IMG/VR virus record: IMGVR_UViG_3300001484_000215
DNA length: 29,683 nucleotides
Direction: 5' to 3' (one strand)
DNA from: a virus
Position numbers and translations under genes: made by a program. This document shows, in pieces, positions 10,569 through 29,683 of this stretch (positions within the stretch are counted from its first letter, which is position 1; the number at the start of each line of letters is the position of its first letter). The notes under the pieces are model-generated. The model ran no database searches. It had not been told where the DNA came from and saw nothing but the letters and a program-made list of their open reading frames with translations.

Positions 10569-11138
10569 TTATGCTATTTTATTAGCTAAAGCAGTCATTT
10601 TCTGTCGAAGAGTAGTTCTCTCTTCTGGTGAAGCATCTTTTATCATTTCAGTAATATCACTTGATAATTCTTGTAAATAAGCTTCTAACTCACGAAGTTG
10701 AGAATTGGAATCTTTATGCATTTCTTTTCCTTCCATGTACATTCGACGACGTATTGGGCTTCTTCCCTCTCTAGGATCTCTTCCCATAATATTTGGCATT
10801 TCTGTATAATAATTCATATTACCAGTATTCATACCAGAACCACCCGCAGTATAATACATATATCCATTAGATTTTTCTATCTCTCTATATGGATCATAAT
10901 ACTGCATTCTGCTATAATTAGGAGTAGTATAATAATTTATATTAGTTTCACTCTTATTATCATTACTTTTTTCCATAGAATCTGTAATGGTGCGATAATA
11001 AATAGCTTCTGCTAAATCCTTAATCATATCAACAGCTTCTCCAAGCTCATGCGCATCAGCTTTAGAAATATCTCCTAACTGATTTTGTACACAACTTGTA
11101 AGTTGGTCTTCCATTATTTTTAAAGTTTCTACACTCAT
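10569..11138 (-). CDS. Hypothetical protein (~189 aa) with a coiled-coil C-terminus; no TAG codons.
   Basis: ORF 10569..11168. The preferred start is the internal ATG at 11136-11138, which is preceded by AAGGAGGAAAATAAA. The stop is TAA. Confidence 0.6.
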   Translation of the reverse strand: MSVETLKIMEDQLTSCVQNQLGDISKADAHELGEAVDMIKDLAEAIYYRTITDSMEKSNDNKSETNINYYTTPNYSRMQYYDPYREIEKSNGYMYYTAGGSGMNTGNMNYYTEMPNIMGRDPREGRSPIRRRMYMEGKEMHKDSNSQLRELEAYLQELSSDITEMIKDASPEERTTLRQKMTALANKIA

Positions 11139-11151
11139 TTTATTTTCCTCC

Positions 11152-11586
11152 TTAGGCAGTTCTTTCAATCACTAAATTAGCGTTTTGAACATCTACATCA
11201 GTAGTTCCGATGTTTTCAACTGCTACTGTATAACAACAACCACGAGGAAGGTCAATAAAGACTGAAGCGTAAACATTCCAAAACTACTCTGCGGCAGCTG
11301 GTGTAACAATTACAGAACTTGTTGGAATAGGCTCTCCATCAATAGCTAATGCAAGGGAGAGCGGCGTTGAAGCCGCTCCTCCTTCAGGAATCGCAATGTT
11401 TGCGCCGAATGACACTTTATATCTAGCGAATCCGCTACAGTTATTGACTTGGCCTCTTAAAGTGATAATTCCAGATCCTTCTCTATGAATAATTCCTTGA
11501 CGGCATCCTGGAATTGGAACATCAGTGAACAAAACATTCTGTCCAACCGCTACAGTTTGGACTGCATTTGCTGTATATTCTGCCAT
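11152..11586 (-). CDS. BclA-C-terminal / C1q-TNF-like jelly-roll domain protein, ~144 aa.
   Basis: ORF 11284..11637 with the start moved to the ATG at 11584-11586 (RBS AAAGGGGG). It reads through one TAG (11284-11286) to TAA at 11152-11154. The C-terminus ...QNANLVIERTA and the overall pattern resemble the BclA C-terminal domain (…SASIIIEKVA). Confidence 0.55.
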
Positions 11587-11603
11587 GTCATTACCCCCTT
11601 TTA

Positions 11604-27088: not shown

Positions 27089-27160
27089 ATTTATAGAAAT
27101 ATATGGAAGAAATATATAGAACCTTATAAATTATAAAAACTATTAATATTAATAAATTAA

Positions 27161-27189
27161 TTGATTTTTTATAATTTTTTTGTTATAAT
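27161..27189 (+). promoter_or_regulatory. Second, near-identical tandem promoter P2 (TTGATT-N17-TGtTATAAT), ~35 nt upstream of the ATG.
   Basis: TTGATT at 27161-27166, a 17-nt spacer and TGTTATAAT at 27181-27189. The RBS GAAAGG and ATG 27222 follow. Confidence 0.65.
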
Positions 27190-27221
27190 ATAATTATAAA
27201 TAAAAAAGAAAGGTAAAAAAT

Positions 27222-29683
27222 ATGGGGAGATATGATAATGAAAATTGGAACGAACAGCCTCAAATGAATCGACAGCGAGACCTTGTCCTTTCCACTAATG
27301 AATTTTGTTTTCTACAGTCTAAAACCAATGGTGCAATTAAGACCTATTCTGGTCCCATTACCATGACAATTTCTGCTCAGGAATCTTTGGTCGTATTTAA
27401 TCCCAAAACAAAGAAATTTGAAGAGACTCAAGATTTTGAAAAAGCGAAGCAGCTTTTTATTTCAGCTCCCGAGGGATGGTATGTGGTATTAAAGAATCCT
27501 GCTACTGATAATTCTCATCCAGAATCTGCAAAAGCAGTTAATAGTCCAGAGCTTGAAATTGGTCGTAAGATTAATATTGCAGGTCCGGTTTCTTTCTCTT
27601 TGTTTCCTGGTCAAATGACAAGAGTAATTCGAGGACATAGACTTCGTTCAAACCAGTATCTACTAGCACGAGTATATGATGCGGAAGCTGCACGAAAAGG
27701 AATGGCTACAGCTACTATTGTCAACGCAGAAGGTAAAGAAGTCGTTGCAAAATCTGAAGAATATTTTGTAGGTCAGATGATTGTTATTAAAGGCACAGAG
27801 GTATCTTTCTACATTCCGCCAACAGGTATTGAAGTTATTCCTAATGATTTTAATAATACTTATGTACGAGATGCAGTTACTCTTGAAAGGTTGGAATATG
27901 CCATTCTAAAAGATGAAGACGGTGAAAAAAGATATATCCATGGTCCTGCGGTGGTTTTTCCTAAACCTACAGAAACTTTTGTATCTGTACCTAATAAAGA
28001 TAGCGTAATTTTCCGTGCCTTGGAACTGTCTCCGATTAGTGGTATTTATGTAAAAGTTATTGCCGCATATGATGAAGAAAAAGATGGAGAAAAAATTCAT
28101 CATCCAATTGGAGAAGAGCTTTTTATTACTGGAAATGACCAGATGATTTATTATCCTCGTCCAGAGCATGCAATGATTCAATATGATGGAAAATATATGC
28201 ATCATGCTATTGCAATTCCTGAAGGCGAAGGAAGATATATTTTAAATAGACTTTCTGGAGAGATTTCTACAATTCGCGGTCCTCAGATGTATTTACCAGA
28301 TCCCCGCACCGAAGTTGTAGTAAGAAGAAAACTTACTACAAAAGAATGCGAATTAATGTATCCTGGAAATAAAGAAGTATTGGCTTATAACACCAATCTT
28401 TCTGAAAAAACTATGGAGAAGCTGGCAAAGAAAGGATTATCTAATCCTACCGCAGACATTTTGAATAATACTTATTCTACTGCAAATCAAGATAGTACAT
28501 TAGCAATTTTTGAAGCTAATGCTAATATCTCTAGAGGAGTAAGTTATACAAAGCCTAGAACCATTACTCTTGATACCAAATATGAAGGTGTCGTAGCTAT
28601 TGATGTATGGACCGGATATGCAATCAATGTCGTTTCCAAATCTGGAAACAGAGAAGTTATTGTAGGTCCCGCCACAAGACTTTTAGATTATGATGAAACA
28701 GTAGAAGCTCTAGAAATGCCGAATATGCCAAATGGAACTGCATTCTTGCAGATTGAAAATAATAAAATTACTGATATTATCTCTGCACAAACCGCAGATT
28801 TCGTAGATGTTAGAATTAATTTAAATTATTGCATTAATTTTTTGAAAGATTATAAAAATTATTGGTTTGCAGTTAATAATTATACTAAATATCTGTGTGA
28901 TAATATGCAGTCTCTTATTAAGAGGGAAATTAAGAAATATAATATTAAAGATTTTTACGCCAATTCTACAGAAATTATTAGAAATATTGTGCTTGATATT
29001 GATTCATCTAAAGATGATAACAAAAAGATTCCTTTTGGAAGATTTTTCAAAATTAATGGTATGTTAATTAATGATGTAGATATTATTCATGTAGCTGTAG
29101 AAGCTAACATTGCAGCTATCCTTGAAAAAAATCAAACAGAATTAATTCAGAAAAGTATTGAATTAGCTAATGCAGAAGAGCGTTTGCGTGTTTCGACCAG
29201 CCTCTCAGAAATTACAAAGCAGGAAGCTGAATTGGCAAATGCAACAACATTGCATACTCTTGCTCTTGCACAGGCAGAAACTGAAGAAAAAATGCGTAAT
29301 GAAGAGCTAATTAATGCTAAAACTCGCGAGGCGGAAAAGGCTAAAAATCAAGCAGAAAATGACCTTCAGAGCATTTTAGATGAAATTCATAATGCAAAGC
29401 TTGCTCGTTTAAGAGAGGCTCGCAAGGCTGACTTGGATTATGAAAGAGCTCAGGCTGAGATTGAAAAAGCTAAACAGGATGCATATGCTGCTAGTGTCAG
29501 AGAAATTATGAATGCTATTTCTCCTGAACTGATTGCCGCAATTAGCGCAAGTTCTAAGGCGGATCTCTTAAAGGAAGGTATGGCTAGTATGGCTCCTTAT
29601 GCATTGGCAAATGGAGAGTCTGTTGCCGACACTGTAAACAAACTTCTTAGAGGAACTTCTCTTGAAGAGGTTATTAATAATAA
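27222..29683 (+). CDS. Major vault protein (MVP)-like protein, 5'-complete and 3'-partial (>820 aa, runs off the window); no TAG codons.
   Basis: One uninterrupted frame from ATG 27222 to the window end. It is absent from the ORF track only because no stop is reached. Three segments align with the MVP shoulder and cap-helix region: ITDIISAQTADFVDVRINLNYCINF (cf. MVP [25 protein letters not shown]); IKDFYANSTEIIRNIV (cf. FDDFHKNSARIIRTAV); DLDYERAQAEIEKAKQ...ISPELIAAIS (cf. ELVYARAQLELEVSKAQ...IGPSTIRDLA). Confidence 0.75.
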   Translation, partial: MGRYDNENWNEQPQMNRQRDLVLSTNEFCFLQSKTNGAIKTYSGPITMTISAQESLVVFNPKTKKFEETQDFEKAKQLFISAPEGWYVVLKNPATDNSHPESAKAVNSPELEIGRKINIAGPVSFSLFPGQMTRVIRGHRLRSNQYLLARVYDAEAARKGMATATIVNAEGKEVVAKSEEYFVGQMIVIKGTEVSFYIPPTGIEVIPNDFNNTYVRDAVTLERLEYAILKDEDGEKRYIHGPAVVFPKPTETFVSVPNKDSVIFRALELSPISGIYVKVIAAYDEEKDGEKIHHPIGEELFITGNDQMIYYPRPEHAMIQYDGKYMHHAIAIPEGEGRYILNRLSGEISTIRGPQMYLPDPRTEVVVRRKLTTKECELMYPGNKEVLAYNTNLSEKTMEKLAKKGLSNPTADILNNTYSTANQDSTLAIFEANANISRGVSYTKPRTITLDTKYEGVVAIDVWTGYAINVVSKSGNREVIVGPATRLLDYDETVEALEMPNMPNGTAFLQIENNKITDIISAQTADFVDVRINLNYCINFLKDYKNYWFAVNNYTKYLCDNMQSLIKREIKKYNIKDFYANSTEIIRNIVLDIDSSKDDNKKIPFGRFFKINGMLINDVDIIHVAVEANIAAILEKNQTELIQKSIELANAEERLRVSTSLSEITKQEAELANATTLHTLALAQAETEEKMRNEELINAKTREAEKAKNQAENDLQSILDEIHNAKLARLREARKADLDYERAQAEIEKAKQDAYAASVREIMNAISPELIAAISASSKADLLKEGMASMAPYALANGESVADTVNKLLRGTSLEEVINN

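Follow-up and report, generated by a model that had tools for sequence, protein, structure and literature searches.

Exclusion and graded avoidance of a reassigned TAG codon in a phage encoding a major vault protein homologue

The 29,683-nucleotide stretch of viral DNA considered here in its entirety (the window; IMG/VR record IMGVR_UViG_3300001484_000215) derives from a tailed gut phage of Firmicutes in which the stop codon TAG has been reassigned as a sense codon, and which belongs to a lineage of ~120-180 kb phages that encode a homologue of the eukaryotic major vault protein (MVP) and are related to the phAss-1 group. The reassigned codon is distributed very unevenly among the genes of this phage. 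It is absent from the MVP gene and from all but one gene of the block that MVP heads, it recurs throughout the tail, lysis and nuclease genes, and it is avoided to differing degrees within a small cassette lying among the tail genes at 10.5-13.2 kb. This partition is conserved in recoded relatives and is independent of both base composition and protein conservation. We think it probable, though by no means certain, that the genome is written in two dialects, one a standard-code-compatible MVP block and the other a set of tail, lysis and nuclease genes that depend upon suppression of TAG.

TAG as a sense codon and its exclusion from the MVP block

In the standard code the window breaks up into short open reading frames (ORFs), and long phage genes emerge only when TAG is taken as sense: the ORFs then sum to 11,399 aa instead of 6,938 and the longest reach 2,932, 1,309, 958, 847 and 676 codons, whereas readthrough of TGA brings only a small gain (8,363 aa) and leaves the longest ORFs unchanged. 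All 17 window genes that have a stop codon end in TAA. In the rightward extension of the window contig (L002) the stops are TAA or TGA and TAG never serves as a terminator, while 3 of 24 genes of the standard-code relative L004 terminate with TAG. Homology to PHROG and Pfam families runs on past the TAGs of the window proteins, one window TAG is replaced by CAG in a strain 99% identical to it, and the database gene calls for the parent ENA metagenome contig (ERZ12302817 NODE_450; 65,195 bp, incomplete) already read through TAG. The amino acid inserted is most likely glutamine, in keeping with what has been published on the group. Opposite the TAGs of the tape-measure protein (TMP) the standard-code orthologue carries Q at 26% and E at 28% of positions, and with Q at 44% opposite CAA and 9% opposite GAA, the profile opposite TAG lies between those of Gln and Glu codons. 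When the window is compared with strain L067, to which it is 95-99% identical, gains and losses of TAG prove mostly non-synonymous (GAG, AAG or GAA exchanged with TAG), CAG being involved in 2 of 15. We have counted TAG as a Gln-type codon throughout, its share being TAG/(TAG+CAA+CAG).

The 18 window genes together hold 135 in-frame TAG, 336 CAA and 65 CAG codons in a sequence of 29.5% GC, and these are not randomly apportioned. Counted per gene, as an earlier note on this DNA had proposed, a low-TAG group has 2 TAG against 77 CAA+CAG and the rest have 133 against 324 (Fisher p=1.2e-8, for a grouping made post hoc), and a chi-square over all window genes gives p=8e-5. The same note had described an MVP-like gene of more than 820 codons with zero TAG, which is borne out (820 codons in the window, 824 in full; 0 TAG, 8 CAA, 17 CAG). 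It had assigned the structural and RuvC-like genes a TAG every 30-80 codons; these genes do bear TAG, and the spacing ranges from one in 22 to one in 155 codons (RuvC 1/23, TMP 1/47, the 1297-aa tail protein 1/81, the fibres 1/140-155), the RuvC-like gene and the 66-codon ORF at 13851-14051 being the most TAG-dense in the window.

The higher GC that it had noted in both low-TAG stretches is likewise present (34.3% in the cassette and 35.4% in MVP, against 27-29% in the tail units), and has different origins. In MVP there is a synonymous shift (GC content at third codon positions, GC3, of 0.22; CAG at 68% of CAA+CAG; AAG at 29% of Lys codons). In the cassette genes C252 and BclA_C the excess lies at codon positions 1-2, reflecting 21-25% Gly+Ala, with GC3 at the background value of 0.16 in C252 and raised to 0.27 in BclA_C, and the cassette gene D84, at 25.5% GC, is not GC-rich. 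Composition is not the cause of the missing TAGs, since the TAG-free genes have no lack of out-of-frame TAG trinucleotides (29 within MVP).

Judged by its sequence matches, the phage protein is a member of the major vault protein family. It matches MVP_shoulder (PF11978, E=6.9e-22) and Band_7 in Pfam, MVP chains in the PDB align to its residues 320-775 (E=7e-14) across the repeat, shoulder and cap-helix region, and the MVPs of relatives match Vault_3. Its gene is the first of a co-directional rightward block of at least 12 kb, followed in L002 by a 63-aa ORF, Band_7/SPFH, RNA ligase, AAA_33 kinase, metallophosphoesterase, holin, endolysin, RNase H, gyrase B and gyrase A. Fourteen genes of this block hold no TAG among 98 CAA+CAG codons, against 133 and 324 in the late genes (Fisher p=2e-13; the late genes counted are those of tail, TMP and RuvC type), and the endolysin, with 2 TAG, is the sole TAG-bearing gene of the block. 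MVP, Band_7, RNA ligase and a DUF2828 gene share a distinct synonymous bias (GC3 0.22-0.35, CAG 68-100%, AAG raised). The exclusion is not confined to them, however, as RNase H and GyrB are dominated by CAA and yet TAG-free, and the small block ORFs have no TAG among 11 Gln codons (P=0.02).

The pattern recurs in every recoded relative examined. MVP is a core gene, found at 53-100% identity in 49 loci (46 MVP loci were retrieved from IMG/VR), and contigs of 120-178 kb carry hundreds of relatives that share 74-79% identity with it. In the 18 recoded loci of the block replication set, MVP has 0 TAG, 77 CAA and 401 CAG (13-27 CAG per locus), against 148, 483 and 93 in TMP and 53, 89 and 15 in the endolysins, the endolysin embedded in the block being TAG-bearing in every recoded relative. 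The RNA ligase, kinase, two phosphoesterases, Thg1, RNase H, GyrB and GyrA of the recoded loci contain no TAG in ~23,600 codons, or in ~23,900 codons of nine non-structural families if a single Band_7 locus is added. The standard-code L004 has no TAG in 1,641 TMP codons, and the recoded L006 has 72 in a TMP fragment; at 75-79% MVP identity the one lineage thus includes both standard-code (L004) and recoded phages (the window, L006, L009-L019). That MVP uses CAG only is independent of recoding, because it does so in L004 as well (28 CAG, 0 CAA). Each CAG codon is a single transition away from TAG. As most of the CAG-class codons of late genes have become TAG while the CAG-rich MVP has none, the absence indicates selection against TAG itself.

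As a control for protein constraint we considered only Gln sites conserved in the standard-code orthologues. At these, late genes have 15 TAG, 57 CAA and 8 CAG (19% TAG) and the MVP block 0, 29 and 28 (Fisher p=1.9e-4). Furthermore, among 13 late-region genes the TAG share is unrelated to protein identity with the orthologue in the recoded relative L071 (Spearman rho 0.08). The exclusion at block level is robust in that it survives both controls; the cassette signal in the single genome is not.

The block also coincides with host-type promoter-like sites. The extended -10 sequence TGTTATAAT, usually with TTGATT at -35, occurs at six sites in the ~40 kb examined, all of them intergenic and facing the next gene, five in the TAG-free block and two of these before MVP. 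In L002 it occurs 6 times against ~1 expected, and at least six occurrences were reached in 0 of 100 shuffles. Terminator-like hairpins are enriched (11 against 4.9±2.0 in shuffles) and split the block into units. The holin (L002 17071-17346) and endolysin (17358-18767) are flanked by two such hairpins (17008-17045 and 18777-18814). The holins of recoded relatives carry 0-1 TAG against 2-17 in their lysis-enzyme ORFs, so that suppression is needed by just one member of the lysis pair.

The cassette at 10.5-13.2 kb

The second low-TAG stretch, at 10569-13149, was given in the earlier note as ~670 codons with a single TAG; it comprises five genes and 841 codons (826 with database starts) and has two in-frame TAGs. 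With the adjoining SprT-like gene it forms a six-gene cassette (E162, D84, C252, BclA_C-like, A189, SprT-like) that abuts tail genes and has RuvC adjacent to it. The two TAGs are sense codons. That of the BclA_C-like gene, at 11284-11286, is CAG in the 99%-identical strain, and 42 conserved residues follow it. That of E162, at 12703-12705, falls in a variable C-terminal tail; we considered it as an ancestral stop codon and rejected the idea, as the homologues extend beyond it to a conserved terminal Phe.

The avoidance of TAG in the cassette is a matter of degree. Across 17 non-identical recoded genomes, in which flanking late ORFs have a TAG share of 25%, the share is 1.1% in C252 (4/353 Gln-type codons, p=6e-34), 6.5% in D84 (p=6e-11), 9% in E162 (p=4e-9), 10% in BclA_C (p=0.03) and 17% in A189 (p=0.03), and rises above the flanks to 50% in the SprT-like gene (p=3e-4) and 57% in RuvC (p=3e-13). 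The four C252 TAGs of the relatives all lie mid-gene, and C252 must therefore be made under suppression; A189, E162 and SprT have 2-3 TAGs each in one close relative. As such, the cassette is decoded under suppression, and what it displays is a graded and leaky avoidance, unlike the absolute exclusion of the MVP block, and not standard-code compatibility.

The cassette is syntenic in the distant standard-code relatives L055 (on a contig shared with an MVP locus) and L065, and is kept in the recoded L058 and L071 (where the block is inverted), as it is at 17 other recoded loci, and on the strength of this synteny it is ancestral rather than recently acquired. Nor does it resemble a horizontally acquired moron in codon usage or position: its synonymous usage is not atypical, with C252 at background GC3 and its extra GC due to Gly and Ala codons, and it is neither absent from close relatives nor variable in position. 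The C252 and BclA_C pair is, in addition, found in many small temperate Firmicutes phages, between the lysis genes and the integrase (e.g. Butyrivibrio virus Ceridwen and Dulem virus 33).

C252, the most TAG-averse gene of the late region, encodes a protein whose 78-97% identity places it among the best conserved of the family, with a predicted transmembrane (TM) helix, long helices and a Cys-rich C-terminus; its AlphaFold model is poor (pLDDT 46) and shows nothing beyond a hydrophobic helix at the N-terminus and two long ones. The cassette proteins gave no Pfam, NCBIfam or PDB assignment beyond a weak BclA_C match, and no convincing promoter was seen upstream of E162. We also observed that the BclA_C-like protein is 75% identical to its counterpart in the distant standard-code L055 and 42% to that of the close recoded L071 (17063-17518), the adjacent C252 being 84.5% identical to L071, and these sequence identities suggest allelic replacement of a single gene within a conserved cassette.

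Two probable dialects, rival explanations and related systems

In the two-dialect reading that we favor, the MVP block (Band_7, RNA ligase, PNK-like kinase, phosphoesterase, RNase H and gyrase B/A), standing behind host-type extended -10 promoter-like sites, would constitute an early/middle programme, which the unmodified host translation apparatus can translate because it has no TAG. The tail, tape-measure, fibre, endolysin and RuvC genes would need TAG suppression for a full-length product, and these proteins would be made only after a phage suppressor tRNA has become active. Among them the frequency of TAG may be tuned gene by gene: high in RuvC, the SprT-like gene, endolysin and a GIY-YIG endonuclease, ~25% in tail genes, and low in the cassette. 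The last is an ancestral part of the late region that is not translated before suppression and whose quantitative avoidance of TAG probably serves translation efficiency or dosage. The families enriched for TAG in this lineage (endolysin, RuvC, SprT-like, the TM protein at 148-642 and, in relatives, the GIY-YIG endonuclease) might be harmful if made early or needed in small amounts only. The partition into host-code-compatible and late genes that the earlier note had proposed is thus sustained on the MVP side, where it extends to a whole TAG-free block conserved in recoded relatives, and fails for 10569-13149, with its sense TAGs and graded avoidance.

Several observations sit uneasily with this account. 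The early and late labels are drawn from gene content, promoter-like motifs and analogy, and the gating role of TAG is itself inferred. The window has no tRNA genes, and a suppressor tRNA was found neither in the window, L001, L002, L067 and close relatives (~47 kb of the lineage being readable) nor in the 10 kb past GyrA in relatives; a code-change module (suppressor tRNA, release factor or aminoacyl-tRNA synthetase) was likewise not seen in the part of the lineage read. The holin is TAG-free although a late gene would be expected. Some of the replication-type genes downstream of gyrase in relatives have 1-4 TAGs, and the partition is consequently not strictly functional. A TGTTATAAT site precedes one TAG-containing tail gene and a perfect sigma-70 consensus precedes the TAG-dense RuvC, so that promoter class fails to separate the two sets cleanly. 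Finally, the pooled loci are phylogenetically non-independent, and at conserved Gln sites the cassette (2 TAG, 22 CAA, 8 CAG) is not significantly depleted in this genome alone (p=0.14).

The most serious competitor is that expression level alone is at work, TAG being poorly decoded and purged from abundant proteins such as the MVP shell and C252, with no role in timing or gating. We consider this unlikely for the pattern as a whole, if still deserving of weight. It fits the codon bias of MVP, Band_7, RNA ligase and DUF2828 and the two tandem promoter-like sites before MVP, and C252 shuns TAG though decoded under suppression; for the cassette it is probably right. It does not readily explain why the block genes apart from the endolysin are all TAG-free, down to small and weakly biased ORFs and the CAA-dominated RNase H and GyrB, why exclusion there is absolute (0/478 Gln codons in MVP) and that of C252 leaky, or why the endolysin inside the block always has TAGs. 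Since most turnover of TAG is non-synonymous (CAG in only 2/15 changes between strains) and Q stands opposite TAG in only 26%, TAG might instead simply accumulate at variable sites in fast-evolving tail proteins, as a neutral by-product of constraint. That no proteins are better conserved than MVP and C252, and that the cassette loses significance at conserved Gln sites, agree with such a view. We nonetheless find it quite improbable, given the contrast between 19% and 0% TAG at conserved Gln sites of late genes and block, the 401 MVP CAG codons of recoded genomes of which none has become TAG, and the absence of a relation between identity and TAG share; RuvC and SprT are conserved yet TAG-rich, and E162, D84 and A189 divergent yet TAG-poor.

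The earlier note had also raised the possibility of recently acquired genes, imported from a standard-code host or phage and not yet infiltrated by TAG, and this we judge very improbable. The higher GC of both stretches, the moron-like position of the C252 and BclA_C pair in many small temperate standard-code phages, and the closer affinity of the BclA_C-like protein to a distant standard-code relative than to a close recoded one all speak for import. However, MVP is a core gene that has stayed TAG-free in all recoded loci despite the 13-27 CAG codons in each, and MVP as well as the whole cassette, with its tail genes and RuvC, is syntenic in standard-code and recoded relatives alike. The divergence of the cassette from relatives equals that of its flanking genes, its GC3 is mostly at background (as in C252), and TAGs turn over so fast between strains that long-resident genes would have gained them. 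An origin in chance or base composition, with counts following gene length, Gln content or GC, is scarcely credible: D84, A189 and the holin are small and individually non-significant, but Fisher tests within the contig give p from 1e-8 to 2e-13, MVP abounds in out-of-frame TAGs, and the pattern recurs in 17-18 further genomes.

An elaboration of the two-dialect reading, to us a long shot, is that the TAG-free, codon-optimised genes driven by tandem promoters (MVP, Band_7, DUF2828/vWA-like, RNA ligase, PNK-like, phosphoesterase and, in relatives, Thg1) form one early system that enables the code switch, a vault-like shell and RNA repair guarding or repairing tRNAs, including the suppressor tRNA, against host anticodon nucleases. 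Were this so, the partition would reflect functional dependency and not timing alone.

Published accounts already exist of the phenomenon, of the group and of MVPs in phages, and the present case is a new and well-replicated instance. Borges et al. (10.1101/2021.08.26.457843), whose model the sequence data here fit, proposed that host-code genes are translated first and that structural, lysis and some nuclease genes need the code change, with selection enriching or depleting the recoded codon in particular gene families. Their recoded phages (Garnet, Topaz, Agate, Jade, crAss-like, Lak) share with this one low GC, TAA as the dominant stop, close standard-code relatives, recoded stops concentrated in the genes for structure and lysis while those of replication type keep the standard code, lysis-enzyme and endonuclease genes as the most recoded, and families enriched or depleted for the recoded codon. 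Unlike those clades, this phage belongs to another lineage (MVP-encoding and phAss-1-related), has a TAG-averse cassette in its late region, and carries its lysis pair as an island in a standard-code block, with a TAG-free holin. Babkin et al. (PMC10607447) described phAss-1 (proposed Phassvirus), human-gut Caudoviricetes of ~133-138 kb with suppressor tRNAs and a TMP of ~3,150 aa, in which 28% of the ORFs use TAG for Gln, these being "mostly virion genes and several DNA-processing enzymes", in a group with recoded and standard-code members; the TMP here has 2,908 aa and those of relatives 3,134-3,142, a likeness taken from the published description. A divergent member of the wider phAss-1 group, ctOa11, is one of two phages with the first-reported MVP homologues (10.1101/2023.11.10.566534). 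The MVPs of that work by Santos et al. (ctOa11, ct2Ri15) resemble ours in size (~811-830 aa), in coming from gut Caudoviricetes of Firmicutes, and in their MVP shoulder and match to solved MVP; the work is silent on codon usage, and the MVP here is TAG-free and CAG-biased, lies behind tandem promoter-like sites and is followed by Band_7 and RNA-repair genes. Codon and tRNA adaptation of the T4 type likewise sets two codon regimes in one genome, a G-ending, GC3-richer set and an AT-rich late set, of which a reassigned stop codon is the extreme case seen here.

What is added is a replicated example, over dozens of related genomes of which some use the standard code, of stop-reassigned phages that keep one dialect readable by the naive host and another readable after the decoding change. 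Slightly beyond what has been described are the absolute exclusion of TAG from a CAG-rich gene, a per-gene gradient among late genes (1% in C252 to 57% in RuvC) that is independent of protein conservation, and the placement of a phage MVP and RNA-repair genes in the host-readable set. For practical purposes, TAG must be annotated as sense in these genomes, as the tail, lysis and nuclease genes are otherwise fragmented.

Other features of the window and its relatives

Table 1. Features located in the window, with the number of in-frame TAG codons where counted.
Feature	Position	Strand	Basis or remark
Left tail/baseplate/fibre unit, six TAG-containing genes	148-9160	+	Readthrough ORFs; PHROG tail and tail-fibre matches
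TM protein, 6 TAG	148-642	+	Opens left tail unit
Tail-unit gene, 12 TAG	669-3536	+	TAG-readthrough ORF
Tail-unit gene, 14 TAG	3538-5550	+	TAG-readthrough ORF
Tail-unit gene, 3 TAG	5571-6248	+	TAG-readthrough ORF
Fibre gene, 6 TAG	6266-8782	+	TAG-readthrough ORF; PHROG
Tail-unit gene, 1 TAG	8810-9160	+	TAG-readthrough ORF
Bidirectional terminator-like hairpin, convergence of + and - units	9175-9222	.	Hairpin scan
Fibre-like gene, 310 aa, 2 TAG	9235-10167	-	TAG-readthrough ORF
Terminator-like hairpin ending cassette unit	10217-10246	-	Equivalents after SprT-like gene in L071, L058
SprT-like small metallopeptidase (HExxH), 1 TAG	10252-10566	-	Pfam, PHROG matches
Cassette gene A189, 0 TAG	10569-11138	-	TAG counts, synteny
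Cassette gene B, BclA_C-like (C1q/TNF-like) small protein, 1 TAG	11152-11616	-	phrog_20016, E=1.3e-50 across TAG
Cassette gene C252, 0 TAG in 20 Gln codons	11604-12362	-	TAG counts, profile matches
Cassette gene D84, 0 TAG	12407-12661	-	TAG counts
Cassette gene E162, 1 TAG	12661-13149	-	TAG counts, homologue alignment
Perfect sigma-70 consensus TTGACA-17-TATAAT, 26 nt upstream of RuvC	13294-13322	+	Motif scan
RuvC-like Holliday-junction resolvase, 7 TAG in 162 codons	13348-13836	+	Pfam, PHROG matches
66-aa gene (3 TAG, 13851-14051) and 1297-aa tail protein (16 TAG)	13851-17951	-	Readthrough ORFs
TGTTATAAT extended -10 site upstream of 1297-aa tail gene	17987-17995	-	Only one in TAG-containing region
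Tape-measure protein (TMP), 2908 aa, 62 TAG	18235-26961	-	PF10145 PhageMin_Tail in database gene call
Two tandem TTGATT-N14-TGTTATAAT promoter-like sites upstream of MVP	27060-27088, 27161-27189	+	Motif scan
MVP homologue, 824 aa (last 4 codons beyond window)	27222-29683	+	MVP_shoulder match; 0 TAG, 17 CAG, 8 CAA

With regard to transcription signals, counts of the sigma-70 consensus are not above shuffles in 9-14.3 kb, and RuvC, judging by the sequence before it, looks fully transcribable by host polymerase yet untranslatable without suppression. A candidate late-promoter motif, AATTTT(T)AATAWW, has 10 matches against 1.9 expected; it was defined post hoc, is of low complexity and coincides in part with the spacer of the early promoter read in reverse complement.

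A megablast of the window against GenBank phages returned no match, and the MVP relatives in bacterial assemblies carry inconsistent labels of metagenome-assembled genomes (Bacilli, Erysipelotrichaceae, Clostridium, Methanobrevibacter). Among cultured relatives, Enterocloster phage PMBT10 and Enterococcus phage EF1 offer leads to a host. Within the collection searched, the only deposited phage records with MVP homologues were LR756500.1, LR756501.1 and LR756503.1 ("uncultured phage", 462-735 kb, 41% identity).

Some ~0.3-2 kb to the left of the window start in relatives lies the TAG-free DUF2828+DUF7788 gene, which encodes 509 aa with a weak vWA-like match (L067 746-2275, L070 7749-9236, L071 3028-4554) and has the strongest codon bias of any examined (GC3 0.35, AAG 76%, 11-12 CAG against 0-1 CAA in L067 and L071). 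Taken with MVP, Band_7, RNA ligase, Thg1 and the PNK-like enzymes, this gene suggests that a vault/Ro-like ribonucleoprotein and RNA repair form a common theme; identification of the DUF2828 protein itself as TROVE/Ro60-like was considered and found no support at the sequence level.

Transfer RNA genes were encountered outside the window. In L067 a tRNA region begins ~2.5 kb to the left of the window start, and a partial tRNA-Cys (anticodon GCA) at the contig edge (L067 1-55, +) was the sole match of the Rfam scan. Among recoded relatives only distant ones were seen to have tRNAs with a CUA anticodon, the amber suppressor type (L050 21151-21226 and L053 20498-20594, labeled Pyl by ARAGORN). 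These tRNAs share the strand of MVP and follow it at a distance of ~10 kb, inside a largely TAG-free compartment.

The TM protein at 148-642, which has an N-terminal TM helix, uses TAG for 6 of its 8 Gln-type codons, with 5/9 in L070 and 3/10 in L071, and is in its TAG enrichment like the TM lysis-associated proteins of Borges et al. The most TAG-dense gene that we have seen belongs to another recoded relative (L078 14102-15055, +), where 318 codons include 21 in-frame TAGs (17 in the L079 homologue). This ORF has a TM helix at its N-terminus, a coiled coil rich in Gln and, at its C-terminus, a GIY-YIG endonuclease motif; its two neighbours, an NAD-ligase-like and a ThyX-like gene, are free of TAG.

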